Origin: Patescibacteria group bacterium
GTDB taxonomy: Bacteria; Patescibacteriota; Patescibacteriia; UBA10025; JBIOWE01
Assembly (NCBI GenBank): GCA_044868145.1
Contig: JBIOWE010000013.1
Coordinates: forward strand, 6,611 to 70,610
Direction of reading: 5' to 3'
DNA: 64,000 nt
Below the pieces are notes generated by a model. That model was not told the origin of the DNA. It was given only the letters and a program-made list of their open reading frames with translations, and searched no databases. Positions 2,022 to 52,022 of the stretch are shown here, one piece after another. The first letter of the stretch is position 1. The number at the start of each line of letters is the position of its first letter. Both the position numbers and the translations under genes were made by a program.

Positions 2022-2414
2022 TTAATCCTGGCCTGTTTTCCTTCGCTTTTTCTCCCATGCCCGGACTTTTCCTTCATCGAATCCAAAATAATGCGCAATT
2101 TCATGGTGCACGACTTCGTGGACAAGCTTGCGCACGTTTTCAGGATAAGGTCCGGCAAGATGCTCGATCACATGCTTGAATATGGTAATCTTGTCGGGCA
2201 GAACGCCGCTGTAGCCCGCACTCCGCTTGTGGAGTGGGATGCCCTCATACAATCCCAAAAGAACTCCGCGTGCTTTGATCTGACGCTCTTTCATTCGCGC
2301 CGGCCTCGCATCGTCTTCCACGACAAATGCGACGTTTTCAATTCGCCTGCGTATCTGTTCTGGTACCGCGAGAATGGCTTCGTGGATATATTGTTCAAAC
2401 ACTTCTCTATTCAT
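2022..2414 (-). CDS. zincin-like metallopeptidase (HExxH; DUF1025/COG3824-like)
   Basis: 130 aa with HHEIAHYFG motif. Confidence 0.5.
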   Translation of the reverse strand: MNREVFEQYIHEAILAVPEQIRRRIENVAFVVEDDARPARMKERQIKARGVLLGLYEGIPLHKRSAGYSGVLPDKITIFKHVIEHLAGPYPENVRKLVHEVVHHEIAHYFGFDEGKVRAWEKKRRKTGQD

Positions 2415-2818
2415 TATTTCTCAATTACGTATTGCACATTGCCAATTTTGCTTTGCTTATATCGCTGAAGGTAGACGATAAATCCACCAATTTGTTGGGC
2501 GATTCTCTTCAACTCGTTGTTCATTTTCTCAAAATCTTCCTTTCCGATGTACTCAACTGACAGAGCTACATACAGATGATTTCGTACTTCTCCGATAGAT
2601 CCTTTGGAGATTCGCAGGTAGCGCGAGAATTCATTATTATTGTTTTTCTCAAAACCTTCAACAATATTCGCGGTCACGGAAATCATCGCTCGTCGAATTT
2701 GATCTCGCAGGCCGTAATCTCTACTCCAGGGAAGACGGGCAGATACGTCATAAATGATTTTCGTCAAACGAAGAGCATCCCTCCAAATTGGCAAATCCTC
2801 AAAGGCATTATACCGCAT
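2414..2818 (-). CDS. four helix bundle protein (TIGR02436-like, '23S rRNA intervening sequence protein' family)
   Basis: 134 aa, family-typical sequence (ANIVEGFEK…SKGSIGEVRNHLYVA). Confidence 0.6.
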   Translation of the reverse strand: MRYNAFEDLPIWRDALRLTKIIYDVSARLPWSRDYGLRDQIRRAMISVTANIVEGFEKNNNNEFSRYLRISKGSIGEVRNHLYVALSVEYIGKEDFEKMNNELKRIAQQIGGFIVYLQRYKQSKIGNVQYVIEK

Positions 2819-3821: not shown

Positions 3822-4049
3822 CTAGTTTACGGGCCAGAATGGTCCTTCAGAAGGTCCTCCAGCAGGATTACCTCCAAAGGCTGGCGTCGACATTACACGA
3901 TCAGACACCGTGATTGGACCTGTGGCAAGAAAAATACCAGAATTTCCATTGACTGGGCAAACATTGACTTGTGCTGCGCTCGCAACTGCACCAAACGCGA
4001 AGACAGTAATTGTCGCAGCAAGTAGGCTAATAAACAACGTTTTTCTCAT
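3822..4049 (-). CDS. small secreted protein (signal peptide)
   Basis: 75 aa, N-terminal hydrophobic signal. Confidence 0.4.
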   Translation of the reverse strand: MRKTLFISLLAATITVFAFGAVASAAQVNVCPVNGNSGIFLATGPITVSDRVMSTPAFGGNPAGGPSEGPFWPVN

Positions 4050-4114
4050 GCACTATCACCTCCCTTCAAAATGAAATGTAAAGTCTACTTTACATTGTAA
4101 ACGAATGAAAAGCA

Positions 4115-4148
4115 CCTGTCAAGTTAACTTGACAGGCCCTGTGGATAA
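4115..4148. promoter_or_regulatory. perfect 22-bp palindrome CCTGTCAAGTTAACTTGACAGG (terminator-like for minus gene) abutting TGTGGATAA box (4140-4148)
   Basis: direct reading. Confidence 0.5.
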
Positions 4149-4153
4149 ATTCC

Positions 4154-4516
4154 TTACCGCTTGGCGCTCGCGTAGGAAAGCGCCAGCATCTTCGTCAGAA
4201 CCATGACACCGAGCCCAACAACAAGCCACGGATCGAGCTGATGCCGAACACTCTGCACAATGACACCGAGAAGAAGGACGCTTGTCCCCACCAAGAATGC
4301 AACTCGTCCAGCGAGCATCCGGTGTATTCCCTCTCGCTCGTCCCGCGCCTGTTCCCGCCACACGTACACCCCGAATACCACGAAGACGATGAGAATAACG
4401 ATGCTCATCATCATCGTGAGACTGTCCGGCATAAGGAAGCCAAACGGGTTTAACAGTGCTGTCAAGAGTAAAAGGAAAATAACGACCACAGTGATCTCGC
4501 CAATATTATTTTCCAT
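4154..4516 (-). CDS. small multi-TM membrane protein (DUF2178-like partner of XRE regulator)
   Basis: ORF track, internal Met at 4514-4516 avoids long overlap; hydrophobic. Confidence 0.45.
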   Translation of the reverse strand: MENNIGEITVVVIFLLLLTALLNPFGFLMPDSLTMMMSIVILIVFVVFGVYVWREQARDEREGIHRMLAGRVAFLVGTSVLLLGVIVQSVRHQLDPWLVVGLGVMVLTKMLALSYASAKR

Positions 4517-4739
4517 AAGAAAAAATACGTTCAATTGGTTTGTGAAAATACGCCGCAATTTTCATCGCTAACAAGACGGAAGGCGCGTAGTTTCCCTTTT
4601 CAATCGCAATGATTGTCTGCCGCGTAACGCCAACAGCGCGAGCAAGCTCTTCTTGGCTAATCCCTGCCCGCATACGGAGCTTGTAGACATTATTGATCAC
4701 GCGTTCACCCATAAGAAAAGCAATGTGAGTATAAAACAA
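4506..4739 (-). CDS. XRE-family helix-turn-helix transcriptional regulator
   Basis: 77 aa, GISQEELARAVGVTRQTIIAIEKG HTH motif. Confidence 0.7.
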   Translation of the reverse strand: MFYTHIAFLMGERVINNVYKLRMRAGISQEELARAVGVTRQTIIAIEKGNYAPSVLLAMKIAAYFHKPIERIFSYGK

Positions 4740-4906: not shown

Positions 4907-6457
4907 CTAGCTGTCCGACACCACAGACCCGCCAAACGTGCTAAGGATATCTTGGAATATTCCCGATTCTTGTTCTTTTGACAACTGGAACTTGGTGAAT
5001 TCCGCTTCCGGCACCACCTTGGTTTTAATGCGCACCGGGCTGCCGATCAGGTCGGTAAACATTTTCTCCAGCAAAAGCAAGGTCTTGTTTCCTTTCGCTT
5101 GCTCCTCGTGCAGTTTGAATCGGAAGCCGATGGTCAACTTTCCGTCGCTGACCGCGAGCGGCACGCCTGCCTGTAAAATCATCGCAAGCGCATGGTTTGA
5201 TCCATTCACACTTGTTAAAACGCTTGCCCACGTTTTTTGCACATCTGCAAGGGTAAAATGTGCTTTAGCGCCCTTTTTTTGCGCTGGCTGAACAGTTGGG
5301 ATTGCTTTGGACTCAACCATTCTTTCCTGCCGCGGTTTTGGGGGTTCAACTGCTGCCATCGACTGCCCTCCCTCGCACAATTCAATAGCTGCAAGCTCAA
5401 GCGGAAGCTGGGGCAACGGAGAGGAGCGAAAATCGCGTACTTTATTCATGAACAGTTCAATCATGCGTACGACATCGCGCGAGGACACGAGCTTGCCAAA
5501 TTCCAAAATCTTTTTACGCTCTTCTTCGTCAACGTCGAGCGAAGAGAACTGATCCAACGAGCTAGTTACGGAGTACAGGAGCAAGCGCCGAAGAAACTCG
5601 ATCACGTCTTTCGTCAATTCTTGCAAGTTTACTCCCTCATCAGCCGCTCGATTCACGAACCCAATCGCATTCGTTAAATCTCGGTGAATGAGGTAACCGA
5701 CAAATTCGATGACCAGGGCGATGTCCGATCGCGGCAAAACGATGTCGGCTTCTTCCTCGGTAATTTCTTTACCGCCAATGGCGAAGAGTTGCGACAGAAA
5801 TACCTCAGCGTCCCGCACCGAACCGTCTGCGCGACGGCTGATACGGTCGAGTACCGAGTCTTCGACTTTCACGCTTTCCATCTGCGCAAGATATGACAGC
5901 CGCTTTTTCAAGTCCTGTATCGTCACTTTCTTAAAATCGAATCGTTGGCAGCGCGATATGATCGTGGCAGGCACTTTGTGTATTTCCGTCGTCGCCAGAA
6001 TAAAAATAACGTGTTGTGGCGGTTCTTCGAGCGTTTTCAAAAGCGCATTAAACGCCGAGGTCGAAAGCATGTGCACCTCGTCAATAACAAACACTTTATA
6101 CGGCGCCCGCGTCGGGGTGAACCGCGCATTCTCGATAATATTTTCGCGAACGTTGTCCACGCCCGTATGGGACGCCGCGTCCATCTCGATAAAATCGATG
6201 AATCGCCCTGCGGCGAGCTCCGTGCAAAAATCGCATTTGTTGCATGGCTCATGGCCCTTACGGTTTTTGCAGTTCACGGCCTTGGCAAAAAGACGCGCAA
6301 TCGTCGTTTTTCCGACGCCGCGTGGGCCAGCGAATAGGTAGGCGTGGCTGATTTTCCCGCGTTCGATCTCGTTTGCCAACGTCACCTTGATGTGGTTTTG
6401 GCCAACGACTTCATCAAACGTTTTTGGGCGATATCGACGGTACAAGACGTCCGACAT
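4907..6457 (-). CDS. dnaX: DNA polymerase III subunit gamma/tau
   Basis: 516 aa; YRPKTFDEVVGQ…GPRGVGKTT Walker A, zinc module CNKCDFC. Confidence 0.9.
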   Translation of the reverse strand: MSDVLYRRYRPKTFDEVVGQNHIKVTLANEIERGKISHAYLFAGPRGVGKTTIARLFAKAVNCKNRKGHEPCNKCDFCTELAAGRFIDFIEMDAASHTGVDNVRENIIENARFTPTRAPYKVFVIDEVHMLSTSAFNALLKTLEEPPQHVIFILATTEIHKVPATIISRCQRFDFKKVTIQDLKKRLSYLAQMESVKVEDSVLDRISRRADGSVRDAEVFLSQLFAIGGKEITEEEADIVLPRSDIALVIEFVGYLIHRDLTNAIGFVNRAADEGVNLQELTKDVIEFLRRLLLYSVTSSLDQFSSLDVDEEERKKILEFGKLVSSRDVVRMIELFMNKVRDFRSSPLPQLPLELAAIELCEGGQSMAAVEPPKPRQERMVESKAIPTVQPAQKKGAKAHFTLADVQKTWASVLTSVNGSNHALAMILQAGVPLAVSDGKLTIGFRFKLHEEQAKGNKTLLLLEKMFTDLIGSPVRIKTKVVPEAEFTKFQLSKEQESGIFQDILSTFGGSVVSDS

Positions 6458-7831: not shown

Positions 7832-10384
7832 TCACAAATTCCGCTCGCCCATAGCCGGCCCTTGGATGGCTTGCGGTTCGCCCAGGCGCGAACGCTGGAG
7901 GATCTGCTGCTCCACCTGCGCTTTATCGTTACCGAAGCGCTTGCGGGAATTCTCGATGATTTGCCTGGCTTTATTTGCATCACCCGGAGCCAAAGGGAAC
8001 GTTTGCATATTGAACGGCTTAGAAACCGTATTATTGATGAGCAGCTTCACGTTTGCCGTGTACATTTCGACGTTCATGACGTCGTACTCGTTAAAAACTG
8101 GCGCGAATTCCTTGGCAATTGTTTCCGCGTCTTCCACGCCGACGCGAAACGCAACCATTGTTCCGACGTTACCAAAAACCGCGTCGCGGATCTTGGTATC
8201 CTGGCCCTGCACGAGCTGCGTGATAAATTGGTGAGCAATGGTCAGGTTTAGCCGATATTTTCGGGCTTCGGACAGAATGGTGGCGATACTTTCCGTCACA
8301 AAATTTTGAAACTCATCAATATATAAATAAAAGTCCTTGCGCTGTTCCTGCGGAAGTCCCGCGCGCCGCATAGCTGCCATTTGGAGTTTGGATGTAATAA
8401 TCAAGCCGAGCAAACTGCTGTTGACCTCACCGGTCATGCCTTTCGCCAGGTTCACGAGCAGAATTTTTTGATTGTTCATCACGTCGGAAAAGTCGAATCC
8501 GGATTTCTGTTGCCCGATGATGTTGCGCATCATCGTGTTTTCCACGAACCGACCAACTTTGGAAATAATGTAGCCGAGCATTTCGGACTTATGGAAGTCC
8601 GACGTTTTCGCCATTTCCTTCTCCCAGAACGCGCGCACAACCGGGTCCTTTACTTTTTGCACTTTATACCGCTGGAACCCGATGTCCGTGAACATGCGCG
8701 GGATTTCAGCGATGGTTCCAGGATCCGACTGGTCTTCCATGAGCGTGAGCATGACGTTACGCATGTTATGCTCAAACATCGGTCCGATCATTTCCGGCGG
8801 AAACAATTTATAGAAAATGGCGACCATCTCCTGGACCGCAAAATCTTTTTCTTCCGGCGTCTGCGCCTCAAGCATGTTCAGGCCCATCGGCCGCTCCATG
8901 TCCGAAGGATTAAAATAGATAACGTCGTTCATTCGGCGCTCCGGAATATGCTCGAGCACGGCTTTCACAAGATCGCCGTGCGGGTCAATGACCGCGACCC
9001 CCGCGCCCTGCTCGATATCTTGGATAATCATATTGGTCATCAACACGGATTTTCCCGTGCCGGACTTACCGATAACGTACACATGCCGCCTGCGATCATC
9101 GATTTGAATACGCACGGGCCGTTCTTCTCCGCGGTAGAGATTTCTGCCAAGGACAATCCCCTGGCTCGGGAGATCAACAGGCGCGGGCGCTTTTCGGCTG
9201 CCGAGCCAGCGTATATTCGGGGTTTCCGTGGCTGGCAGGGGGAAATGGAATAAAGACGCCAGCTCCTCTGTATTCAGCACAAGGCGTTTGCCTTCACTGA
9301 ATTGTCGATAGATAAAACTGCGCAACATTGCGGGCAAAGACATCGGATCATGGCGAATGAATCCGTTCCCATACTCATAGAGCGTGTATTGCGTGAACGA
9401 GTCAATGATATTCCGGAGCGCGAGCTGGGTGCGTTCGTGCGACGGGCCAGAAACGACAACCCTAATATTGAGGTCAAATCCGGCCTTTGAAGTCTTTTGT
9501 TCTACGCTTTGTAAAACCTGCTGCTCCATTGGCGACAGACGATAGGGCATGTCGAGCTCCTTTGGTTTCTTCGGAAAAAATACATGGAAGAGCTCAAACA
9601 GGAACCCGACAAGACCGCTTTTGCCAACCGCTTCCCGAAGCGTTTTGCCCTGTTGCATCTCCCGTGCGACCCTGGCGCCCCAATTATGCCAACTCGCTTT
9701 AGCCGAACGAACGACAAATTGAATCACGGCGCCTTCTTCCGGCCCGATTTTCGACAAACTATTCGTGAGCGCGTTCAACGGATCAACCGACATACCCATA
9801 TAGGTTTGAAGCGCAAAGATATATGGCCGTTTCAAACGCAATGTTGTGCCCATCGTAACGCTATGGGGTCGGAAAATATTGTAATCCTCCACTTCCTCAA
9901 TTTGCGCGGCCGGATACTGCGCATGGATTTGTTGCTCCATGAACTGCCGGCGATAGAGCGGAACAACCACATAAAACGAAATGAGCCCGCGGTCAGCAAC
10001 AATTTCAAACGAGAAATGATCGTGCCGACCAAACAAAAAAGCGCCGAACCCGCGTTGGGCGCGCATGCCCCCGAGCACTTTCATCAGCGCTTCTGCAGGC
10101 GCAAGGTCATCAACGATTGTTTGCTTCACGCCGCCTCTCTCTTCGCGTTGTTCCTGCTCCGCCGCTTCTTTTGGCACAGTGACCAAAAGCACAACATTGC
10201 GAAAACTCGTGGGCACGCTTCTCTCGCGGCGGAGTATTCGCCGCAAAATAACCAACGCCGCCGCCAAGAATAACAATCCGACGCCTGCGAAGAGCAGCGC
10301 GCTGGCGAAGTGAGGACCGAGCAAAGAGCCAAGGCTTGGGGCGGCGAGCGTCGGAGAAAGTGTTTGAGCGTGCGCAACGGGCAT
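7832..10384 (-). CDS. type IV secretion coupling-protein-like ATPase (VirD4/TraG/TraD family, TrwB AAD-binding type)
   Basis: 850 aa; N-terminal TM helices; Walker A VIGKSGTGKS; Walker B LYIDEFQNF; TIAHQ motif. Confidence 0.55.
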   Translation of the reverse strand: MPVAHAQTLSPTLAAPSLGSLLGPHFASALLFAGVGLLFLAAALVILRRILRRERSVPTSFRNVVLLVTVPKEAAEQEQREERGGVKQTIVDDLAPAEALMKVLGGMRAQRGFGAFLFGRHDHFSFEIVADRGLISFYVVVPLYRRQFMEQQIHAQYPAAQIEEVEDYNIFRPHSVTMGTTLRLKRPYIFALQTYMGMSVDPLNALTNSLSKIGPEEGAVIQFVVRSAKASWHNWGARVAREMQQGKTLREAVGKSGLVGFLFELFHVFFPKKPKELDMPYRLSPMEQQVLQSVEQKTSKAGFDLNIRVVVSGPSHERTQLALRNIIDSFTQYTLYEYGNGFIRHDPMSLPAMLRSFIYRQFSEGKRLVLNTEELASLFHFPLPATETPNIRWLGSRKAPAPVDLPSQGIVLGRNLYRGEERPVRIQIDDRRRHVYVIGKSGTGKSVLMTNMIIQDIEQGAGVAVIDPHGDLVKAVLEHIPERRMNDVIYFNPSDMERPMGLNMLEAQTPEEKDFAVQEMVAIFYKLFPPEMIGPMFEHNMRNVMLTLMEDQSDPGTIAEIPRMFTDIGFQRYKVQKVKDPVVRAFWEKEMAKTSDFHKSEMLGYIISKVGRFVENTMMRNIIGQQKSGFDFSDVMNNQKILLVNLAKGMTGEVNSSLLGLIITSKLQMAAMRRAGLPQEQRKDFYLYIDEFQNFVTESIATILSEARKYRLNLTIAHQFITQLVQGQDTKIRDAVFGNVGTMVAFRVGVEDAETIAKEFAPVFNEYDVMNVEMYTANVKLLINNTVSKPFNMQTFPLAPGDANKARQIIENSRKRFGNDKAQVEQQILQRSRLGEPQAIQGPAMGERNL

Positions 10385-15891: not shown

Positions 15892-15909
15892 ATTTCAAAA
15901 AATCCTCAA

Positions 15910-15966
15910 TTCGTAATCCGTAATTCGTAATATAATAATTCCCCAATGAGCGATTGCGAATTACGG
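15910..15966. repeat. heptad repeats TCGTAAT-CCGTAAT-TCGTAAT plus inverted ATTACGG copy (14-bp perfect inverted repeat TAATCCGTAATTCG/CGAATTACGGATTA) directly upstream of dnaJ
   Basis: direct reading. Confidence 0.6.
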
Positions 15967-17409: not shown

Positions 17410-17703
17410 TTATTCCAGAGCACCTTTTCTAAGGTGCGGCGAAGAAGTTTTGGATTGCATTTTTGCATCCCAAAGAGCGTTGGCGAGCATGCGCACGTTC
17501 GAATCAATCGTATTCATAATTATACCATGATTCGACTCTTTCATGGCGAAGAGCGACTGCCGGAATTCGGGATCTTTGGGCAACTTCAGCTTCCCAGAGT
17601 TGAATTGTTCCGCCAAATATCGAAGCTTCGGTTCCCATTCACGGAACCGCTTTTCTCGCGCTTTTTGCAATATGTCTTTGTATGGACCAAGTTGATTTTC
17701 CAT
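17410..17703 (-). CDS. hypothetical protein
   Basis: 97 aa. Confidence 0.4.
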   Translation of the reverse strand: MENQLGPYKDILQKAREKRFREWEPKLRYLAEQFNSGKLKLPKDPEFRQSLFAMKESNHGIIMNTIDSNVRMLANALWDAKMQSKTSSPHLRKGALE

Positions 17704-17839
17704 TTGTGTATGCTAAATTGTGAATAAGTCAGGTTCTTTCAACATTTTAACCCTTTTTGCAAAGGGAGGTGATGCAAAGCTCTTTACTTACTTCTATATG
17801 TCCTTCGCCTAACCGGGGCCCCTGGCTCCGGTTTTTATT

Positions 17840-17848
17840 TGTGGATAA
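17840..17848 (+). promoter_or_regulatory. TGTGGATAA box (rc of DnaA-box consensus TTATCCACA), 6 nt upstream of -35 of sRNA unit 1
   Basis: perfect 9-mer. Confidence 0.45.
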
Positions 17849-17889
17849 ATCGTTTTGACAATAAGGAGGCCGCGAAGTAAACTAAAGGT

Positions 17890-17994
17890 AGGTGTACTTT
17901 TTCTTAAATAGGTTTGGCGCTTACCACTCCCCAAGCCAACCAAACCACCTCTCCCTACAGAGGACCCGAGCAAAAAATGCTTGGGTCTTTTTTT
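17890..17994 (+). ncRNA. candidate small RNA unit 1 (promoter TTGACA 17855-17860, 17-nt spacer, TAAACT; terminator GACCCGAGCA…TGCTTGGGTC + T7)
   Basis: promoter and terminator read directly; no conserved ORF; internal stem GGTTTGG…CCAAACC. Confidence 0.5.
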
Positions 17995-18042
17995 GCGTGG
18001 CAAACGGTTGACACGAACAAAGCTATGATGTATACTCAAGTT

Positions 18043-18144
18043 ACTTCAATATGTTCCACGGTTTGGTGCTTGGCCCCCTAAGCTAGCCAAACCACTCCCT
18101 AGTTAGAGAGGACCAAGTCGGGTAATGACTTAGGTCCTTTTTTT
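18043..18144 (+). ncRNA. candidate small RNA unit 2 (TTGACA 18008-18013, 17 nt, TATACT 18031-18036; terminator GGACCAAGTC…GACTTAGGTCC + T7)
   Basis: near-consensus promoter; paralogous to unit 1. Confidence 0.55.
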
Positions 18145-18152
18145 GTGGATAA
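18144..18152 (+). promoter_or_regulatory. TGTGGATAA box upstream of -35 of sRNA unit 3
   Basis: perfect 9-mer. Confidence 0.45.
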
Positions 18153-18192
18153 CTCATTTGACAGCTCAAAAACAATTGGTTACACTGGATTT

Positions 18193-18298
18193 GCCAATAT
18201 CAGTTCCTTGGAATGGTTTGGTACGTACTGCCACTACAAACCAAATTGTTCCTCTTTAATACCCGGCCGAAGCCCTAAAAGCTTCGGTCTTTTATTTT
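18193..18298 (+). ncRNA. candidate small RNA unit 3 (TTGACA 18158-18163, 17 nt, TACACT; terminator CCGAAGC…GCTTCGG + TCTTTTATTTT)
   Basis: as above; diverged paralog retaining GGTTTG…CAAACC stem. Confidence 0.5.
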
Positions 18299-18468
18299 CC
18301 AACCGAACGCAGGTCGCCCCGCCCGCTTCGCGTTGCGAAGCAAGGCGGGCGGGCGTGCCTGCGAACGGTCCATCCCGGTGCACCACCCATCGCACCCACG
18401 GCGGGGTGCTCTGTGTAGCTTTTTTTAATAAGGCGGGCTACTTTATTCACCCGCCTTGCTCTTATAGC

Positions 18469-20409
18469 TTACTTTTTCACGTCTTCGTATTTACCTTCGA
18501 CCGGGCCCTTGTCCTTAGACCCTGAGCTTGCCGAAGGGTCGTCGGGTTTCTTCTGCTGCTTGGCTCCGGGCTGACCAGCCGAAGGTCCCGAGCTTGCTGA
18601 GGGACCTGATTGCTGTCCATACATGGCCTGCCCGATCTTCTGAATCGCCTGCGACAATTCATCCGTCGCCTTTTTAATAGAGCTTACGTCGTCGCCGTCT
18701 TTCACCTTTTTCACGGCTTCAATCTTTTCATTAATTTCCTTCTTGGTCTTGTCGTCCACTTTCGAGTCGGCGTCTTTGAGCGCTTTTTCGGAGGTGTACA
18801 CGAGCGTGTCCGCCGTATTCTTGGCGTCTATGAGCTCGCGCTTTTTCTTATCTTCCGTCGCGTGCTTGCTCGCTTCCTGTTTCATACGTTCGACTTCGTC
18901 CTTTGACAAACCGGTTGAACCGGAAATGATGATGGACTGCTCTTTAGCCGTTGCTTTGTCTTTCGCTTTCACGTTCAAAATACCGTTCGCGTCAATGTCG
19001 AACGTTACTTCCACTTGGGGAACGCCGCGCGGCGCAGGCGGAATACCGGAGAGCATGAACTTGCCGAGGGACTTATTATCGCCGGCCATTTCGCGCTCAC
19101 CTTGGAGCACGTGAATTTCCACAGTTGTTTGATTATCCCCAGCCGTGGAGAACACCTGCGACTTGGACGTTGGAATGGTCGTGTTACGGTCAATTAATGG
19201 CGTACGCACGCCGCCCAGCGTTTCAATGCCGAGCGTCAACGGCGTCACGTCCAAAAGCAACACGTCATGCACGTCGCCCTGGAGCACGCCCGCTTGCACT
19301 GCCGCGCCAACGGCAACCACTTCATCCGGGTTCACGCCCATGTGGGGCTTTTTGCCGAAGAATTTTTCAACGGACTGGATAACGAGCGGCATGCGCGTTT
19401 GTCCGCCGACAAGAATCACTTCCTTGATGTCGGATGTTTTCATGCCAGCGTCATCCAGCGCTTTTTGTACCGGTCCAAACGTCTGCTCCACAAGGTCGCC
19501 CACAAGTTCCTCGAGCTTGGCCCGCGTCATTTTCAGGGTAAAGTGCTTTGGCCCGTTTGCGTCCGTCGTGATAAACGGCAGGTTTATTTCCGTTTCCATG
19601 GCCGTGGAAAGCTCGTGTTTCGCTTTTTCCGCTCCCTCTTTCAAGCGCTGCAGGGCCATTTGATCTTTGGAAAGGTCAATACCCTGATCTTTCTTGAACT
19701 CTTGGATCAGCCAATCAATAATCAGGCGGTCAAAGTCGTCGCCGCCCAAGTGCGTGTCGCCGTTCGTAGATTTCACCTCAACGGTATCCTTCGAAACCTC
19801 AAGGATCGAAATGTCAAACGTGCCGCCACCGAGGTCATAGACAGCTATTTTTTCATCTTTCTTTTTGTCGAAACCATAGGCGAGCGCGGCTGCGGTCGGC
19901 TCATTGATGATGCGACGGACGTTAAATCCTGCTATTTCCCCTGCTTCTTTTGTCGCGTGGCGCTGCGAATCGTCAAAATACGCTGGAACGGTAATCACCG
20001 CTTCCGTGATTTTTTCGCCGAGCTTCGCTTCCGCGTCCGCTTTGAGCTTCTGGAGCACCATGGCGGAAATTTCCTGCGGCGCATACTCTTTACTGCCCAT
20101 AACCACCTTGACCCCAGCGCCGGACTGCACCATTTTGAACGGCAGCACTTTCAAATCGCGCTGCACTTCCGGATCATCCCAGCGACGGCCGATCAACCGC
20201 TTGATCGAATAGAGCGTGTTCTCCGGGTTCGTCACTGCTTGGCGCTTCGCAATCTGACCGACAAGCCGTTCGCCATTTTTGGACATAGCAATGACCGAGG
20301 GCGTTGTTCTGGCGCCTTCGCTATTTTCAAGAACCTTTGGCTGGCCACCTTCAATAATGGCCATGCAGGAGTTCGTTGTTCCTAAATCAATTCCCAGTAT
20401 TTTTGCCAT
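18469..20409 (-). CDS. dnaK: molecular chaperone DnaK (Hsp70)
   Basis: 646 aa, [16 protein letters not shown] motifs. Confidence 0.95.
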
Positions 20410-21352: not shown

Positions 21353-21709
21353 TTATTTAAACAAGCTTCTCGATAATCCTGTAAGCATGGCTCCTATTTC
21401 GTCCAGTTTTACCCACAGATCGTCGAGTTCTTTTTTGGTGCAGAACCGTAGCGCATGGCAAATCTCTAACCCTGCCTTTACTTCATTAACGGAACGGAGC
21501 GAAATGTTTAGAAATCGATGAAATTCGACTTTTGAATTAGTTACTGAGGATCCCTCTGAAAGATTCAATAATATGGAGATTGATGCGCGACGCAGTTGAG
21601 CAACGAGACCAAATTTTTCTTCATCTGGTAACGCTTCTGTAAACTTGTATAAAAGTACAATAAACTCCTTGGTCTTTTGATAAACTTTTAAATCTTGATA
21701 TGTTCCCAT
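21353..21709 (-). CDS. four helix bundle protein (TIGR02436-like), second copy, embedded in heat-shock operon
   Basis: 118 aa, paralogous to 2414..2818. Confidence 0.55.
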   Translation of the reverse strand: MGTYQDLKVYQKTKEFIVLLYKFTEALPDEEKFGLVAQLRRASISILLNLSEGSSVTNSKVEFHRFLNISLRSVNEVKAGLEICHALRFCTKKELDDLWVKLDEIGAMLTGLSRSLFK

Positions 21710-22979: not shown

Positions 22980-23006
22980 TTAGCACTCAAAGCTCGAGAG
23001 TGCTAA
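22980..23006. promoter_or_regulatory. CIRCE operator TTAGCACTC-N9-GAGTGCTAA (perfect consensus)
   Basis: direct reading. Confidence 0.9.
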
Positions 23007-23010
23007 TTCC

Positions 23011-23039
23011 ATTATAATAGTCCGGAAAAGGAGTGTCAA
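23011..23039 (-). promoter_or_regulatory. sigma70 promoter of hrcA operon: TTGACA (23034-23039) -17- TATAAT (23011-23016), -10 ends 4 nt before CIRCE
   Basis: direct reading on minus strand. Confidence 0.75.
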
Positions 23040-23050
23040 GGAAAGAAGCT

Positions 23051-29955: not shown

Positions 29956-32900
29956 TTAGTATGAATTATACCACAAACCATAGTCTGATGATTCTATATG
30001 CTCCTCCTCGGCCCGCGGATTCAGGGATGGAGCGGGGGGCAATGGACCCTGGACGCCTAGGCCGCCTTTCGGCGGACCCTCGGATTTGTTGGCTCCTGGA
30101 CCAACATTACCCGGAGCATTTTGCGATGGCGTACCGCCACCACCGCTACTTGGGCCAGATGGGATAGGACTAGCTGGGTTGGATAGCGGTGGGTTTAAAT
30201 TTATGTCGCCCATAGCTGTCGGCTGAATATAATCTTCGCCCGGATAGGATGATTGTGGTGCGGTTTTTGGATTCTTCGCCGCCTTAATTACTTCTTCTTT
30301 TACCTTATCCTTTAGTTCTTCTAAAAGCTTTTCTCCTATCTCTCCTAATGCGCCTTTTACGGCTTTAACTCCGGACTTTTCGCAGCCTAAGGTTACACTC
30401 CTTAACAAACCACGTGCTAATTTCGTACCTAGGTTCTTTACGGCTGATGCGGCGTTGAGACCAGTAAGAGTCCAGTCTCCCGTTGTGCTCCCTGCATCGA
30501 TCAATTCCTGGTCTTCGGAAGGTAAATCTTTTTGTCCTTCTACTTCACCCGACAAGGCACCGAGGGTACAATTTTCTAACACCCCTTGCAAATAACCCAA
30601 AAGTGTCAAGCTTGATTCCACCGAAACAATCTCCTCTACAGTCTCGGAGTAGGCGTTTGATACATTTTGTCCTGCATCACTCAATGAATCTGCGAAATCT
30701 CTTTCAGGAATGCCGGGCCCCGCACTGCTAGACCCTGCACCGGAAGGATCTGACCGATCAGGATAATACAGACCGCGAGGATCGGTTCTATTAATAGGGT
30801 TCTCAGCCACATACGCCAGCCCATTCCCAAGATTCATCGGGTCCGTCCACGTGCCAATCGGGTCGCGTTGGATGAAGCGGCCGAGCACAGGACTATACAT
30901 TCTATTGTGGTAGTCGTAGAGCCCTGTTTCGCTGTCGAAACGTTGGCCGGTGAATAGGTACGGGTTGCCGATTGCTGAACTGCCGATGTCAGTTCCGCTC
31001 GCGTTACGGAATGTAGGCTTGCCGTACGGATCATAGTCGTACCGCTCAACAACGTTTCCAGACGAATCCGTTACCGCGCTAACGCTGCCAAGACTATTGA
31101 GATGCGCTGTGTAGTCTTGACCGCTACGTTTAAAGCCGACGAGTTCGTTGGCCCCGGAACCCCAGACATTCGTTGCCTGGACCACGTCGCTGCCATCGCG
31201 TTCTTCCACAGTTTCGAAGCCGCTGTAATAAAACTTCGTGGTTGTTGCGCCGACGATTTTGTTAATCCGACGACCGAGTACATCATACGCGTACGAGGCA
31301 ATCGTTGTCGTACCTGGAGCATCTTTCACGGTGAGGAGCTGGTTCCGATAGTCGTAAACGTATTGATATGTTCCGTCGGACTTCAAGTTCCCGTTCACAT
31401 CGTACGTAAGGCCTGCAGCCCCGACTGTGGTGTACTGGTTCATCTGGCTGTCGGCCGGATTCGGCGTTGTTCCATCCATGACGTACGAAGTGGGTGTGCC
31501 GTTCTCCGTGACACTCGTGCGATTGTTCACGCCGTCAATTGCGTAGTCAATCGTTTTCTGCACCGCACCGGTGTTTGCAACCGGATCGTCAAGGCCCAAC
31601 TTGGCCTGCGTCAGCCGGTACGCGGCATCGTAGCTGTAGCGGTCGCCTTTGCCGCTCCATGGAGCGTGGTTCTTCTTCTCGTACAGTCGGACATTCACGC
31701 TATCAAACCCGTATTGAAAGTCCGTAATGGTTGTGAGCGGCGATACCTTCTCGTCAACAAGATGCGTGATTCTGCGAATCGTGTCGTATGTTACCGTGGC
31801 CTGCGTGCCATTGCCGAACGTGCGTTTGGAAACGCGTCCAAAGCCGAGATAGTCGTTATCAACAATTTGTGAACCATTCGTGATGGTCTGAAGCCGATCC
31901 AACGCGTCAAAGGTTTGATCAAGCGTCCTGCCACCGGGGTAAACGAGGCTCGTCGGGTCGGCGACACTGTTAAACGTGCGGCTAAGAACCTTACCGTTCT
32001 GCGTTTCTGTGCGTGGCTGGCCGAACGAGTCGTATGTTGAGGTGACCATACTGTCCTCGTCTTGACCCAGCGTCATGCGGCTCAACCCGTCATAACCGTA
32101 TGTTTCGGCGGTTGTGCCGAGAACGCCCGGAGCCCGCACGATTGCTCGAGACGTCAAGCGATTTTCGTCATCGTAAACATTCGTGACCACTGACCCGTTT
32201 TGATCCATGGCCGTAAGTACATTGTCGTTCGCGTCGTACGTTTGCGAAGACGTCGTTGCGTCGGCATAGAGCGTTGACGTCAAACGGTTCAGCGCGTCGT
32301 ATGAATAGATTGATGTGTGATTGTTGTCGTCGGTTTGTGAGGCTAGTCGCGAGTTATCATCCCACGCCTGCAAAATCGTAATGGAAGGATCCGCGTCCAT
32401 TCTCGTTTGACGACTCAATCCATCGTACGTGAACGTTGAAACGCTCCCTTTCGCGTCAGTCGTGCGGACAACGTTGCTCCGGCTGTCGTAGGCGTAGGTG
32501 GTCGTCTGACTCAACGGGTCACCCTGTTGCAGCACTTGTGTGGTGAGCCGGTCGAGATCATCGTAGGTGAAGGTGGTGGTCGTGTTCACTGCGGGACCGC
32601 TCACCTCCGGCAGCTCGTGCTCAACCGTGCTGATTACGTTGCTATTTGCGTCGTAGGTGTTCGTGACCGTATTGAGCAGCGGATCCGTGGCCACAGTCAT
32701 TCGGCTCATCCCATCGTATGCGAAAAGCGAATCTCGATTGAGATCGTCTCGAGTTTTTACTAGGCGGCTGTTTTGATCGTACTGGAACTTTGTCGTTCTC
32801 GGATCACCAGGAAGTGCGGCTTGCGTTGCAGGATCAAAATAGGATGCATCCGACTGGAACTCTCGGTTGAGTTCGTCATATTGAAAGGCGGACTCGGCGA

Positions 32901-35328
32901 GTCGGACGTTCCCGCCGCCGGTTTGATTCAAATGGCCTTCATATTTCGAGGTCAACATATTGCCGTTCATGTCGTACGTGAACAACGTTTTGAAACCGAG
33001 CGGGCTTAACCCCTGGGTAAGACGGTCGAAAGGATCGTAGGTGAATTGAGTCATCTTGCCACGGCCGTCAACGCTTTTGATGGTGTTGAAATTCGCGTCG
33101 TACGTAAACGCTTGCGTGGAAGCGCCTGCAGCTCCAAACCCGCGAGTTACCTGATAAGGACGATTACGTCCGTCGTAAATTGTTTTGACGCTGTTGCCAA
33201 ACGGTTCAATAACCTTTGTCACGTTCTCATTCGGATCGTATTCATAGGTCGTCATGACATTCTTTGGCGAATCGTCAACCTCGCGGGTTTCCGTAAGCGG
33301 GTGGTTCAGGATGTCATACGTCCAGGACGAAGTCAGACGATTGTTGGGGTAGAAATTACCGTTCTCGTCCTTGTTGTCCACGTCCACGCGGATGACGTTT
33401 CCGTTCGCGTCGTAGGTGTAATCCGCGGCAATGATAAGCGGATGCCGACCGACAGATCTTGTTACCTGGTTCATGGCGTTTACCGCGTATGTGGAGGCCT
33501 GGCCTTTGCCATCCGTAAACGAGGTGAGGTTTCCCACCGAGTCGTATGTGTAGCTATTGGTAATCGCTGCTCCGCCGCTATCACTTGTGACAGACTGGAG
33601 ATAGCCATTGTTTAGACCGGAGGCGTAATACGCGTAAACGTCGTAATTCCCTTCAGGATGGGTGAGCCTGGTGACCTGGCCGTATTGGTTGTACCGCGTG
33701 GTTGAGGCGGGTTGTTGCGGCTGGCTCAATCCGACAGTCACGGCCGGGGCTTGCACTTTCACCACATTGCCGGCTGTTTGATTCGTTATCTCGTCCCCGT
33801 TCAAATCACCCAGCGTTCCTTCTTCGTAATCATAGAAATAGGTCGTTACTTTCCCTTTCGGGTCTGTCGCTGTTTTGATGAACTGAAAATTCGGTTCGTA
33901 CGTGTAGGACATTACAATGTCCGGGTCCACGCCGAGCGATCCTGCCTTTCGGTTTGTTGACAAAAGGTTGGCCCGCTTTTTCGGATCAGGGTTCGCTGCG
34001 TCGTATGTAAACGACGTTTGATTCCCTCGCGGATACGTTACCAAGCTCAGGGAACCCATGCTGTCATACGCATACATAGTTTCCCAATACGGCGGGTCGT
34101 CCGGATTCACGCCGTTCGAGTACACCTTCTCTTTCGACGGCTGGCCGGAGCTGTTGTAGAACCAGTCCTTGATATTACCATTGCGATCCGTAACGCGCGT
34201 GTAGCTTTGCTCTGGATGGTAGTCGTAAAGATATGTGCCGTTACCGTATACCTGGCTCGACACTCGATCAGACCCATCATACACGTTCGTCAGGAACACC
34301 TGGCCCTTGGGGTCTTTGATCGTCAACAGGTTATGGTTCAAGGTGCCGGGGGTGAGTCCGATTGAATATGTGTACGTTGTCTGACGGCCAGCCGGAAAAT
34401 CCTGGGTTGCCGGAGACGTGACAATGGACAGGTTGCCATCAGCATCGTACGTATACGTCACGCGGCGACTGGTGTAATCCTGCACTGCGGTTATCCTGCC
34501 ATTCGCGTCGTATGCCAGGTAGATGTTTCTGCTAAGCGTGTCAAGAACGCGGACAAGCAAGTTACCGGAATAGAAAAACGTCAGCGTATTGCCATTGCGG
34601 TCAATCATCTGCTTAAGCAAACCATCGTTCGATTGGCTCGCGAACCCGTAGAACACGTACTGGAACCCGTCCGGCTCAAGCAGTGTGTACGTACCATTCC
34701 CGTTCAGACTGATCGTATCGAAGAAACCCGGCGCGGTGTATACGCCTCCATTCAAGGTGTAAAGGTCGTTGAACCGGTTACCAGGCGGCGCGTTGCCTTG
34801 TGGCGTGATAATGCCATGATAAAGGCGGATATTTGAACCGTCCTGCAGAATTCGTTTATTGTAATTAAACTCCCAGCCATAACCAAGACTGCCGCTGTAT
34901 GTAAGCTGTGCGCGGTACACGCGTTGGAATGCAAAGTCCAGCCCCCTACCCGGAATCACCAGATCGGTGGCCTCGAGATAAAATTCACCGTTTTGAAGAT
35001 AAACGGGTTCGCCGTCCGATGTCGGGGTTCCGACCGGAGTGGACGGGATGGACGGAGGAGGAGAACCTCCCCCACCGTGACAGCCTGCGGCGTTTGCTGT
35101 GGGTATAAGGAGAAGTCGCTCAACGACAAACTGAAAACGCTGTAGTGGATTCCTGTGGGTGTTGAATGCTTGAATCCAGGGGCACCTGGCGTACGCGTGC
35201 CAGATCGGTAACCCAATAAAGACAAGAATAAAAAAAATCGCGACGATCAAAGTACGAGCACGAAACGACTTCAACCCTTTTGTGTTAAATTCTCTCCGTT
35301 GAGTATTTTTCTTAACAAAATTTGGCAT
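29956..35328 (-). CDS. RHS/YD-repeat polymorphic toxin (N-terminal TM anchor, YD repeats, RHS core ending DPRGL, ~330-aa variable C-terminal domain)
   Basis: 1790 aa; repeated YD/YxYDxxGR motifs; GNPYLFTGQRFDSETGLYDYHNRMYSPVLGRFIQRDP…NRTDPRGL. Confidence 0.85.
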   Translation of the reverse strand: MPNFVKKNTQRREFNTKGLKSFRARTLIVAIFFILVFIGLPIWHAYARCPWIQAFNTHRNPLQRFQFVVERLLLIPTANAAGCHGGGGSPPPSIPSTPVGTPTSDGEPVYLQNGEFYLEATDLVIPGRGLDFAFQRVYRAQLTYSGSLGYGWEFNYNKRILQDGSNIRLYHGIITPQGNAPPGNRFNDLYTLNGGVYTAPGFFDTISLNGNGTYTLLEPDGFQYVFYGFASQSNDGLLKQMIDRNGNTLTFFYSGNLLVRVLDTLSRNIYLAYDANGRITAVQDYTSRRVTYTYDADGNLSIVTSPATQDFPAGRQTTYTYSIGLTPGTLNHNLLTIKDPKGQVFLTNVYDGSDRVSSQVYGNGTYLYDYHPEQSYTRVTDRNGNIKDWFYNSSGQPSKEKVYSNGVNPDDPPYWETMYAYDSMGSLSLVTYPRGNQTSFTYDAANPDPKKRANLLSTNRKAGSLGVDPDIVMSYTYEPNFQFIKTATDPKGKVTTYFYDYEEGTLGDLNGDEITNQTAGNVVKVQAPAVTVGLSQPQQPASTTRYNQYGQVTRLTHPEGNYDVYAYYASGLNNGYLQSVTSDSGGAAITNSYTYDSVGNLTSFTDGKGQASTYAVNAMNQVTRSVGRHPLIIAADYTYDANGNVIRVDVDNKDENGNFYPNNRLTSSWTYDILNHPLTETREVDDSPKNVMTTYEYDPNENVTKVIEPFGNSVKTIYDGRNRPYQVTRGFGAAGASTQAFTYDANFNTIKSVDGRGKMTQFTYDPFDRLTQGLSPLGFKTLFTYDMNGNMLTSKYEGHLNQTGGGNVRLAESAFQYDELNREFQSDASYFDPATQAALPGDPRTTKFQYDQNSRLVKTRDDLNRDSLFAYDGMSRMTVATDPLLNTVTNTYDANSNVISTVEHELPEVSGPAVNTTTTFTYDDLDRLTTQVLQQGDPLSQTTTYAYDSRSNVVRTTDAKGSVSTFTYDGLSRQTRMDADPSITILQAWDDNSRLASQTDDNNHTSIYSYDALNRLTSTLYADATTSSQTYDANDNVLTAMDQNGSVVTNVYDDENRLTSRAIVRAPGVLGTTAETYGYDGLSRMTLGQDEDSMVTSTYDSFGQPRTETQNGKVLSRTFNSVADPTSLVYPGGRTLDQTFDALDRLQTITNGSQIVDNDYLGFGRVSKRTFGNGTQATVTYDTIRRITHLVDEKVSPLTTITDFQYGFDSVNVRLYEKKNHAPWSGKGDRYSYDAAYRLTQAKLGLDDPVANTGAVQKTIDYAIDGVNNRTSVTENGTPTSYVMDGTTPNPADSQMNQYTTVGAAGLTYDVNGNLKSDGTYQYVYDYRNQLLTVKDAPGTTTIASYAYDVLGRRINKIVGATTTKFYYSGFETVEERDGSDVVQATNVWGSGANELVGFKRSGQDYTAHLNSLGSVSAVTDSSGNVVERYDYDPYGKPTFRNASGTDIGSSAIGNPYLFTGQRFDSETGLYDYHNRMYSPVLGRFIQRDPIGTWTDPMNLGNGLAYVAENPINRTDPRGLYYPDRSDPSGAGSSSAGPGIPERDFADSLSDAGQNVSNAYSETVEEIVSVESSLTLLGYLQGVLENCTLGALSGEVEGQKDLPSEDQELIDAGSTTGDWTLTGLNAASAVKNLGTKLARGLLRSVTLGCEKSGVKAVKGALGEIGEKLLEELKDKVKEEVIKAAKNPKTAPQSSYPGEDYIQPTAMGDINLNPPLSNPASPIPSGPSSGGGGTPSQNAPGNVGPGANKSEGPPKGGLGVQGPLPPAPSLNPRAEEEHIESSDYGLWYNSY

Positions 35329-35337
35329 AAAGTATCT

Positions 35338-35346
35338 TGTGGATAA
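35338..35346 (+). promoter_or_regulatory. TGTGGATAA box 9 nt upstream of RHS start codon (reads TTATCCACA on coding strand)
   Basis: perfect 9-mer. Confidence 0.4.
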
Positions 35347-35552
35347 AGGCTAAAGGATTGATCATCTTACCCTTAGATGGCTAGCAAGGCAAGCACAAAA
35401 CATACCCCCTAACGAAGTGAGATATGTTTTGTTTTTTGGATTTTATCTTTACTGAACCACCCAAATCGCTTCAAGCGCTCTTTCGTTCAAAACTCCACAA
35501 AGGGGTTCTGTGGACCCCTTCGAAGAGTACGGTTAAGTAAACGAAAACGTTC

Positions 35553-40793: not shown

Positions 40794-40810
40794 GATAGGA
40801 AAAGGAAAAA

Positions 40811-41045: not shown

Positions 41046-42269
41046 TCAACCTTTCATCTTATTTTTTATATTTTCAAATCGATGCTTTGCCAGCAAGAAG
41101 GTAATTTTTGGAACGGACTTGATTCGGGCTTCTTTGAATGATATGCGCCCGGACAAGAAGTCGAGAAAGTACTGGTGCACCTCTTTGTCGCGCCCGAAGT
41201 GTTTTAGGCCAGTGTCAATAATGCTCGGGTGCTCAAAAATAAAATGCTGCATGCTAAGAAGCGTTTTGAACTCCAAACCAAATTCTTTATGCCACAACTT
41301 CTGATACTCGGCGAGCTCGTGTTCCGAAACGTTATCTTTTTGTATTGCGTCAGCCATTACCTTTCCCGCGAGCTCCCCGGAGGTTAAGGCATAGTAAATG
41401 CCTTCTGCAGTGAGCGGCTGCGGGAATCCAGCCGCGTCTCCGCACAAAAGCACCCGATTCGTATACGTTTTTTTCAAAGGTCCTCCCCATGGTATCGCCC
41501 AAGAACGCATGCCGGTCAAAGGAAATGCTTCTGGCAGTAAATGCTCGCTCTTCAGAAATGCGATATACGCGTCATGCACCTGCTTTAAGGCGGCGTCTTT
41601 GTACGTACTAAGAAATCCTACTCCAACGTTCACGAACTTGCCTTTGGGGAATATCCAACCGTATCCGTGAATGCCGTGAAACGCGAAATGGATGATGATT
41701 TCATCGTTCGGCAAGCCGGTGTCGAATTCGAGCTCTTGCTCGGAAGCGAACGCGTAATGATCTTTCGGCCAGCCGAGGTTCAGGCCTGACGCTTTGGCAA
41801 CCAAGCTGTTAATGCCATCCGCGCCAATAACCGCTTTCGCAGTATATACCTCACCATTTTGTAGAAAAACCGTCGCTTCGTCTTGGGTAATTTTGACTTC
41901 CCGGACGCGTTTTCCAAGAACATGATGCACACCCGCTTGCTTGCAGAGCTCATACATGCCCGCGGAAAAATCCAGTCTGCGCATTAAATAGTAAGAGTCA
42001 TGTGCACCGGCAGCCGTGGCCTTTTGCAGTGCGTGCGAATAGACAGTGATTTTGCGAATCGCGGACCGGCTAACCTTGCGCACGATTGGCGCAAGATAGG
42101 GAAAACGCTCGAGGGCAGCGTATCGCAAGCCGCCACCGCACACCTTGTCTTTGGGCAACTTGTCCGCTTCAATTAGGCAAACCGAAACGCCCGCCTTCGC
42201 AAGATTATACGAAGCGTTCTGACCCGATGGGCCTCCTCCGATTACTAAGACATCGTACGATTTCTCCAT
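41046..42269 (-). CDS. geranylgeranyl reductase family FAD-dependent oxidoreductase
   Basis: 407 aa, VLVIGGGPSG Rossmann motif. Confidence 0.7.
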   Translation of the reverse strand: MEKSYDVLVIGGGPSGQNASYNLAKAGVSVCLIEADKLPKDKVCGGGLRYAALERFPYLAPIVRKVSRSAIRKITVYSHALQKATAAGAHDSYYLMRRLDFSAGMYELCKQAGVHHVLGKRVREVKITQDEATVFLQNGEVYTAKAVIGADGINSLVAKASGLNLGWPKDHYAFASEQELEFDTGLPNDEIIIHFAFHGIHGYGWIFPKGKFVNVGVGFLSTYKDAALKQVHDAYIAFLKSEHLLPEAFPLTGMRSWAIPWGGPLKKTYTNRVLLCGDAAGFPQPLTAEGIYYALTSGELAGKVMADAIQKDNVSEHELAEYQKLWHKEFGLEFKTLLSMQHFIFEHPSIIDTGLKHFGRDKEVHQYFLDFLSGRISFKEARIKSVPKITFLLAKHRFENIKNKMKG

Positions 42270-42302
42270 AATTCGTAATACGGAATTCGCAATTCGTAAT
42301 TA
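42270..42302. repeat. heptad repeat array abutting start codon: (sense) ATTACGA-ATTGCGA-ATTCCGT-ATTACGA-ATT-ATG
   Basis: direct reading; 18-mer identical to 2002-2019. Confidence 0.6.
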
Positions 42303-46060: not shown

Positions 46061-46095
46061 GAATTAAGAATTGCGAATTGCGAATTAAGAATTTT
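46061..46095. repeat. five tandem heptads GAATTAA-GAATTGC-GAATTGC-GAATTAA-GAATTTT abutting start of 58-aa ORF
   Basis: direct reading. Confidence 0.55.
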
Positions 46096-51839: not shown

Positions 51840-51917
51840 ACAGCGTTCATTGTACCATAAAAAAGTAAAAGTGAAAAAGAAAAAAGTAAAAACTATCGTA
51901 AAGAAATCTTTCCAATA

Positions 51918-51939
51918 TTTTTCCTTTTTAGATTTTACT
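51918..51939. repeat. inverted exact copy of 22-nt A-rich element (ATTTTTCCTTTTTAGATTTTAC) within ~100-bp A-rich imperfect palindrome
   Basis: exact reverse-complement match to 40811-40832. Confidence 0.7.
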
Positions 51940-52022
51940 TTTTACTTTAAAAAAGAAGAAGGCCCTTCTGTACAAGTCGGGCCATTCTCCTTTTGATTCA
52001 ATTATCGATTGATAAAGCGATG

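Follow-up and report, generated by a model that had tools for sequence, protein, structure and literature searches.

The locus described here raises the question of whether four perfect copies of the DnaA box, all of them located between genes, serve to regulate the genes next to them. The stretch of DNA that was analyzed, in the following called the window, comprises 64 kb and by its sequence is a piece of a Patescibacteria (CPR) chromosome from an ABY1-like group. Its DnaK (18469..20409, minus strand) is 67-79% identical in the best segment to DnaK proteins of Patescibacteria MAGs, with relatives among the Kerfeld-, Komeili-, Uhr-, Kuenen-, Magasanik- and Moranbacteria, and the nearest other DnaK in the protein database is only about 80% identical. 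The genomes of Patescibacteria are tiny, with few transcription factors that can be recognised as such. In a literature search no paper on DnaA boxes in Patescibacteria was found. A previous sequence-only reading had suggested that DnaA, or another protein that recognizes the same sequence, acts as a transcriptional regulator at the four sites. This suggestion is supported computationally by the enrichment of the boxes, by their proximity to promoters and by the use of the same box at the dnaA loci of ABY1 relatives. In our judgement the four 9-mers probably, though by no means certainly, represent isolated high-affinity DnaA boxes under selection, at which DnaA would work as a transcription factor tied to the state of replication initiation.

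The 9-mer TGTGGATAA begins at positions 4140, 17840, 18144 and 35338 of the window, in each case on the plus strand, in intergenic DNA and with nine of nine matches, so that the count of exactly four perfect copies given in the sequence-only reading is correct. By chance, 0.29 perfect copies would be expected per window, and none out of 100 dinucleotide shuffles reached four. For the 7,298 intergenic bases that remain after removal of spurious ORFs, the expectation is about 0.07 copies as compared to the four observed. TGTGGATAA is the commonest intergenic 9-mer of the window, low-complexity words (A/T runs) aside. When up to one mismatch is allowed, 22 sites are found in the whole window versus 10.7 expected. 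It had been stated that within coding sequences variants with one mismatch are the only ones to occur; this is correct but incomplete, as two such variants (at 17719 and 57048) are intergenic. The preferred T at position +2 is present in three of the four perfect boxes.

Since sites 2 and 3 are part of paralogous tandem units, these numbers have to be based on three independent events instead of four, which corresponds to a P of about 6e-5 against the 0.07 copies expected. Once the duplication of the sRNA units is allowed for (three independent sites), the co-orientation of the boxes has no significance. One might thus argue that a single box was copied together with an sRNA unit and that the other two arose at random and are functionless, all the more as sites 1 and 4 do not have a common geometry. 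The probability of three independent intergenic events is so small, however, that this explanation is statistically disfavored, and together with the observations on the sRNA units and on related genomes given below we regard it as very improbable.

Boxes 2 and 3 are associated with three tandem units on the plus strand (17855-18300), each of which has its own near-consensus TTGACA-17-TAnACT promoter and its own terminator. Box 2 (17840..17848, plus strand, perfect) is located directly past a terminator (17811-17833 plus T-run), and is separated by 6 nt (17849-17854) from the -35 element of the unit A promoter, TTGACA-17-TAAACT (17855..17883, plus strand). The corresponding predicted sRNA (17888..17998, plus strand) is composed of a hairpin (GGTTTGG/CCAAACC), a linker rich in C and U, and a terminator. 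Unit B (promoter TTGACA-17-TATACT at 18008..18036, sRNA at 18041..18146, both plus strand) has the best promoter of the three, yet it has no box, and only the degenerate sequence TGCGTGGCAAA is present at the respective position. Box 3 (18144..18152, plus strand, perfect; TGTGGATAACT) is again found directly past a T-run, that of unit B, and 5 nt (18153-18157) before the -35 element of unit C, whose promoter TTGACA-17-TACACT (18158..18186) and sRNA (18191..18300) are likewise on the plus strand. The distance of 5-6 nt between two of the boxes and the -35 elements of sRNA genes, which the sequence-only reading had pointed out, is therefore confirmed by measurement. All three predicted sRNAs are about 105 nt long and have the GGTTTGG/CCAAACC hairpin and the C/U-rich linker in common, as well as a terminator stem that shows compensatory changes.

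In units A and C the box is conserved in nine of nine positions and the promoter hexamers are intact, although the promoter spacers and the sequences flanking the box have fully diverged. Intact hexamers and two intact boxes amid unrelated spacers and flanks argue for purifying selection, and a box that had merely been copied along with its unit would not be expected to remain at nine of nine under these circumstances. Conservation of the box is thus seen between the paralogous units A and C and not in B; it could be followed within the array, the DnaK of the nearest relative being about 80% identical and homologues of the sRNAs not having been found. With a covariance model built from the three sRNAs, no convincing match was obtained among 80 CPR loci and 193 loci with the promoter module described below, and a strict sRNA pattern had zero matches in metagenome contigs. 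Rfam scans of the window and of the sRNA region returned three tRNAs and sub-threshold noise and no family for the sRNAs. An exact-protein look-up with the DUF3467 protein adjoining the array was without match.

Several further features were observed in this region. At 17780-17835 a truncated fourth unit is present, the 5' part of which is similar to unit B. The single-stranded linkers of the sRNAs (CCACCUCUCCCU, CCACUCCCU and UUCCUCU) resemble the anti-Shine-Dalgarno sequence. One of the two intergenic one-mismatch boxes, TGTGAATAA (17719..17727, plus strand), precedes the start of a 97-aa gene (17410..17703, minus strand) by 16 nt; the sRNA region as a whole therefore has two perfect boxes and one box with a single mismatch over 430 bp. 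Between unit C and the stop codon of dnaK a long GC-rich hairpin (GCCCCGCCCGCTTCGC...GCGAAGC..GGCGGGCGGGC) extends from 18305 to 18365. A Logan contig from this organism stops within the sRNA region; the assembly breaks there about 140 nt past dnaK.

Box 1 (4140..4148, plus strand, perfect) reads TTATCCACA on the minus strand, where a gene for a membrane protein (4154..4558, minus strand) has its stop codon 5 nt before the box. Downstream of it, the operon of this gene and an HTH gene is ended by a terminator-like hairpin (4114..4137, minus strand). The -35 element of the next promoter-like sequence, TTGACA-17-TACAAT (4094..4122, minus strand; near-consensus with 11 of 12 matches), is contained within the hairpin, and the distance from the box to this -35 element is 17 nt. 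The order on the minus strand is accordingly stop codon, TTATCCACA, hairpin (4137..4114), promoter (4122..4094) and a 75-aa ORF (3822..4049, minus strand), which has a hydrophobic signal-peptide-like N-terminus and the ribosome-binding site GGAGGTG and to which no Pfam family could be assigned. This small secreted-protein gene is the presumed target of box 1. With respect to the sRNA units, the orientation of the box is opposite and the spacing is different. It had been noted previously that three of the boxes come after terminator-like hairpins; this is the case, but the hairpin at site 1 (4114-4137) terminates transcription of the minus strand and not of the plus strand.

On the strand of dnaX (4907..6457), box 1 comes about 760 nt downstream of this gene, after a tRNA-Gln gene and the genes for the HTH and membrane proteins, all of which are downstream of dnaX. 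For Borrelia burgdorferi, another case outside of the model organisms, DnaA is reported to control transcription of dnaX-ebfC (PMC9879097); box 1 of the window is not at the dnaX promoter. At a distance of about 1.4 kb from dnaX, an 850-aa TrwB/TraG-like type IV coupling protein is encoded (7832..10384, minus strand), the neighbors of which do not belong to a Pfam family.

Box 4 (35338..35346, plus strand, perfect), which also reads TTATCCACA on the minus strand, is located 9 nt upstream of the ATG (35328..35326) of an RHS-repeat protein gene (29956..35328, minus strand; 1790 aa with RHS_repeat and DUF6531). Its placement on the coding strand in front of this start codon had been recognized correctly before. 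The promoter scan found nothing above threshold at this site. A putative weak promoter, TTGCCT-17-TAAGAT (35364..35392, minus strand), has 8 of 12 matches, is sub-threshold and was spotted by eye; if it is used, we infer that box 4 would lie at about +11 to +19 of the RHS transcript. A fourth sRNA gene past box 4, where a plus-strand hairpin with a T-run is present at about 35390-35445, was also considered. This candidate was rejected, as there is no plus-strand promoter, the fold z-score is -1.4 and the sRNA model did not match.

Taken by themselves, the four sites thus show boxes 6 and 5 nt upstream of TTGACA (sites 2 and 3), a box 17 nt upstream of a -35 element (site 1) and a box next to a putative promoter (site 4). 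The odd geometry of site 1, the lack of a convincing promoter at site 4, the boxless unit B and the isolated position of the boxes all count against regulation by DnaA.

Furthermore, the occurrence of the 9-mer was assessed in 80 dnaK loci of CPR bacteria, which comprise 1.34 Mb with about 10% intergenic DNA. These loci contain 34 perfect boxes, about half of them intergenic. For the 80 loci and the window together, counted on both strands, 20 intergenic perfect boxes are found as compared to 1.65 expected. The enrichment in intergenic DNA by which the sequence-only reading had wanted its proposal to be judged is thus present in the related loci and amounts to 12-fold, so that about 11 of 12 intergenic boxes are above chance, a proportion that also speaks against randomly arisen, functionless boxes. 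The specificity is sharp: each of the 27 one-mismatch variants has between 0 and 6 intergenic copies, which is near expectation. In a ranking of words by how many loci have an intergenic copy, the box is 130th out of 69,041; the words ahead of it are mostly from the CIRCE element or A/T runs. The intergenic boxes of the CPR loci are found at variable positions and in both orientations, hrcA promoters included.

Perfect boxes are present upstream of hrcA in five relatives (L007, L018, L019, L075 and L080) and after dnaJ in three (L007, L052 and L064); in L019, a box is located within the spacer of the hrcA promoter. A heat-shock-specific link was nevertheless rejected, because the boxes in front of hrcA (4 of 65 within 250 nt, versus about 2.3 expected) show no excess over the general intergenic rate. 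The CIRCE words are the top intergenic 9-mers over the 80 CPR dnaK loci, and the window itself has an hrcA promoter (TTGACA...TATAAT) followed by a perfect CIRCE element, TTAGCACTC-N9-GAGTGCTAA, at 22981-23040 on the minus strand.

The use of the same word at dnaA itself was analyzed in five dnaA loci of ABY1, the class of the source genome, namely the metagenome locus L165 and four loci obtained from homologues of its DnaA. The named close homologues of the L165 protein are DnaA proteins from Magasanikbacteria and Patescibacteria. All five loci encode DnaA, and the four that were fetched show the order rpmH/rnpA...dnaA-dnaN. A perfect TTATCCACA is present about 100-130 nt upstream of dnaA in four of the five loci and perfect boxes are found within the dnaA-dnaN spacer in three of the five, accompanied by many boxes with one mismatch. 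The DNA-binding domain of the DnaA proteins from the ABY1 relatives is conserved, and in their domain IV the motif PRQ...GGRDHTT is kept. The same motif is present in DnaA of B. subtilis, and by analogy to the domain IV-DNA structure from E. coli we take it to confer the same specificity.

The window is not an origin, as had already been suspected. A search with the B. subtilis DnaA sequence found no DnaA homologue in the window, the GC skew is negative and monotonic over the window without a switch, and most genes are on the minus strand. In addition, no second box with up to two mismatches is present within 120 nt of any perfect box, so that each of them is isolated. The boxes of the window have the same 9-mer as oriC, datA and the DARS loci; unlike these, the window lacks clustered boxes, an AT-rich element for unwinding, dnaA or dnaN next to the boxes and a switch in GC skew. 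An interpretation of the locus as oriC, as datA or as a DnaA-box cluster was therefore rejected.

A related possibility is that the boxes bind DnaA chiefly for titration or storage, similar to datA or to the clusters of B. subtilis, and would tune the timing of initiation with little effect on promoters. In B. subtilis, box clusters outside of the origin regulate initiation (PMC3245932), and the boxes of the window are perfect, hence of high affinity, and intergenic, with four of them per 64 kb versus about 0.9 intergenic boxes per 64 kb in the CPR relatives. The known titration loci are, however, clusters of several boxes, whereas here even neighbors with two mismatches are missing within 120 nt, and titration does not account for the module described in the following paragraph, in which the box has a strict orientation and is 5-7 nt away from the -35 element. 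We consider a function mainly in titration unlikely.

The arrangement of sites 2 and 3 was used as a search pattern, TGTGGATAA-N4-7-TTGACA-N17-TAnACT, in the following called the module. In metagenome contigs at least 120 matches were obtained, with a rough chance estimate of about 5. In viral contigs the forward box with a gap of 4-7 nt gave 73 matches (42 non-redundant). As controls, the reversed box gave 7 matches (6 non-redundant) and the scrambled box 24 (6 non-redundant) at the same gap, and the forward box gave 2 matches with a gap of 0-3 nt and 9 with a gap of 8-11 nt. By gap length the 73 matches are divided into 4 (4 nt), 18 (5 nt), 37 (6 nt) and 14 (7 nt), so that the gaps of 6 and 5 nt in the window sit on the peak of the distribution. 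Since the module loci were chosen by the pattern, conservation inside them is no evidence, and it is the controls that count as such; they show that the module is specific in orientation and spacing. The extended consensus of the non-redundant set is yTGTGGATAA[C/A]T, and the flank of the module, like that of box 3 (TGTGGATAACT, flank CT), is identical to the flank of R4 from E. coli. An interpretation of TGTGGATAAT as an extended -10 element was rejected, because the box is followed by C or A in most cases and its spacing is incompatible with TGnTATAAT.

Fixed orientation and a spacing of 5-7 nt would likewise be compatible with an activator dedicated to these promoters or with an extended promoter element. 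The 9-mer could thus be read by a different protein, e.g. a CPR or phage factor, or serve as an upstream element that RNA polymerase contacts through sigma or alpha, and its identity with the DnaA box would then be a coincidence; many of the module matches are on viral contigs, which possibly encode a factor of their own. Such a reader would have to recognize a sequence identical to the high-affinity DnaA box, down to the R4-type flank CT, and the same word is used upstream of dnaA and in the dnaA-dnaN spacers of the ABY1 bacteria. The variable positions and both orientations in CPR intergenic DNA, including the hrcA promoters, are also at variance with a fixed promoter element, and the stacked co-oriented boxes of some contigs, 2-3 nt apart, resemble DnaA arrays. 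Moreover, we know of no other conserved factor with the specificity for TGTGGATAA. In our view there is little to be said for a reader other than DnaA, and DnaA probably acts as gene regulator at the predicted sites, as it does in model bacteria.

Stacked boxes were seen in phage-like contigs, where two or three co-oriented copies of TGTGGATAA with 2-3 nt between them end 5-7 nt before a consensus -35 element (L110, L116, L117, L122, L155, L157, L168, L176, L203, L224, L243 and L248); some of these contigs have an extra box inside the promoter spacer. They look like a phage group with promoters wired to the DnaA of the host. Downstream of the module, a DUF5320-like gene family, genes for LexA-like and small phage proteins, rpoB, a DUF3800-II RNA and several promoter-terminator units without ORF are found. 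The module precedes the gene of a small Gly-rich protein (MPRFNGTGP...), presumably DUF5320-like, in L083, L105, L108, L109, L125, L133, L134, L152, L160 and L161, and in these promoters the near-palindrome TTATGGGTATATACTCATAA overlaps the -10 element. In L131 (377-495, minus strand) the module is directly upstream of a DUF3800-II RNA (Rfam RF02961, 60 bits), which is the sole known RNA directly downstream of a module in an Rfam scan of 20 module loci.

For regulation by DnaA, we infer binding of DnaA at the boxes, the sign of the regulation and the spreading of oligomers as follows. At sites 2 and 3 the box would be centered near -46 with its TAA end toward the promoter. The TAA ends face the sRNA promoters in the same way as those of R1 and R4 in E. 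coli face into oriC. A DnaA monomer bound to box 2 or 3 might touch RNA polymerase, and could activate or stabilize transcription at low DnaA levels. Since the TAA end faces the promoter, oligomers of ATP-DnaA could spread from there at high DnaA levels, cover the -35 and -10 elements and repress transcription. At site 4, a position of the box between the putative weak promoter and the start codon would suit a roadblock or repression. For box 1, upstream of a strong promoter and in an orientation opposite to that of sites 2 and 3, the effect would be the least clear of all sites.

Promoters controlled by DnaA boxes are already known; to our knowledge, the window would be the first case in Patescibacteria and the first in front of sRNA genes. 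In the gua operon of E. coli the DnaA box is downstream of the promoter. The nrdAB, dnaA and gua promoters of E. coli have high-affinity TTATCCACA boxes at or just downstream of promoter elements, as in the window, and the position of box 4 past the putative RHS promoter loosely recalls the repression of the gua operon by DnaA. The promoters in the window differ from those of E. coli in that each has a single box and not two or three and that there is no Fis or IciA context. The targets are also different: in the window, which is from an uncultivated member of the Patescibacteria, they would be the tandem sRNAs and the genes for an RHS protein and for a small secreted protein. The switch between low and high DnaA proposed for sites 2 and 3 matches that of nrdAB from E. 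coli. DnaA is established as both an activator and a repressor, and the outcome at nrdAB is set by the level of DnaA and its bound nucleotide (PMC8203912). In B. subtilis (sda, ywlC, yydA and dnaA; ChAP-chip and IDAP-seq), boxes outside of oriC are intergenic as in the window, and some of them control neighboring genes (PMC4447404, PMC2533591, PMC3245932). Regions with a single box bind DnaA from B. subtilis in vitro, while in vivo only clustered boxes are stably occupied (PMC4447404). Stable occupation in vivo is thus a matter of clusters of many boxes in B. subtilis, whereas the boxes of the window are isolated, those of the sRNA genes being at a fixed distance from the -35 element.

A more far-reaching proposal is that the module represents a widespread class of DnaA-dependent promoters, with the box at about -46, 5-7 nt from the -35 element and with the TAA end toward the promoter, by which Patescibacteria and uncultivated phages would couple sRNAs and early genes to the potential of the host for replication initiation, and which would drive two of the three tandem sRNAs in the window. 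We put this forward as a tentative and rather doubtful generalization. If true, it would provide a direct link from replication to translation in an organism with very few regulators, with the sRNA linkers acting as mimics of the anti-Shine-Dalgarno sequence. Should DnaA be a general regulator in Patescibacteria, part of their gene control would become readable from sequence. The geometry of the module bears on the open question of activation versus repression by DnaA (PMC8203912). Its specificity in orientation and spacing, which is seen over hundreds of environmental and viral contigs, provides a defined and testable architecture with natural variants, and the module flags many unannotated sRNA-like genes.

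Finally, other repeated elements and genes were noticed in the window. Paralogous 23S_rRNA_IVP/bAvd-like genes are present at 2414..2818 and 21353..21709 (both minus strand), one of them inside the hrcA-grpE-dnaK heat-shock cluster. Tandem heptamers in three to four copies (ATTACGA, ATTGCGA and ATTACGG, minus strand) are located at 15892-15935 and 42270-42300, immediately 5' of the start codons of dnaJ and of the gene at 41046..42269, with a further copy near 46070 (46068-46090); they may represent a 5'-UTR or operator element. An intergenic repeat, AAAAGTAAAA or TTTTACTTTT, occurs in both orientations at 40807, 51861, 51882, 51933, 51940 and 63077, with four of its copies in the spacer at 51840-52008 that adjoins the tRNA-Lys gene.
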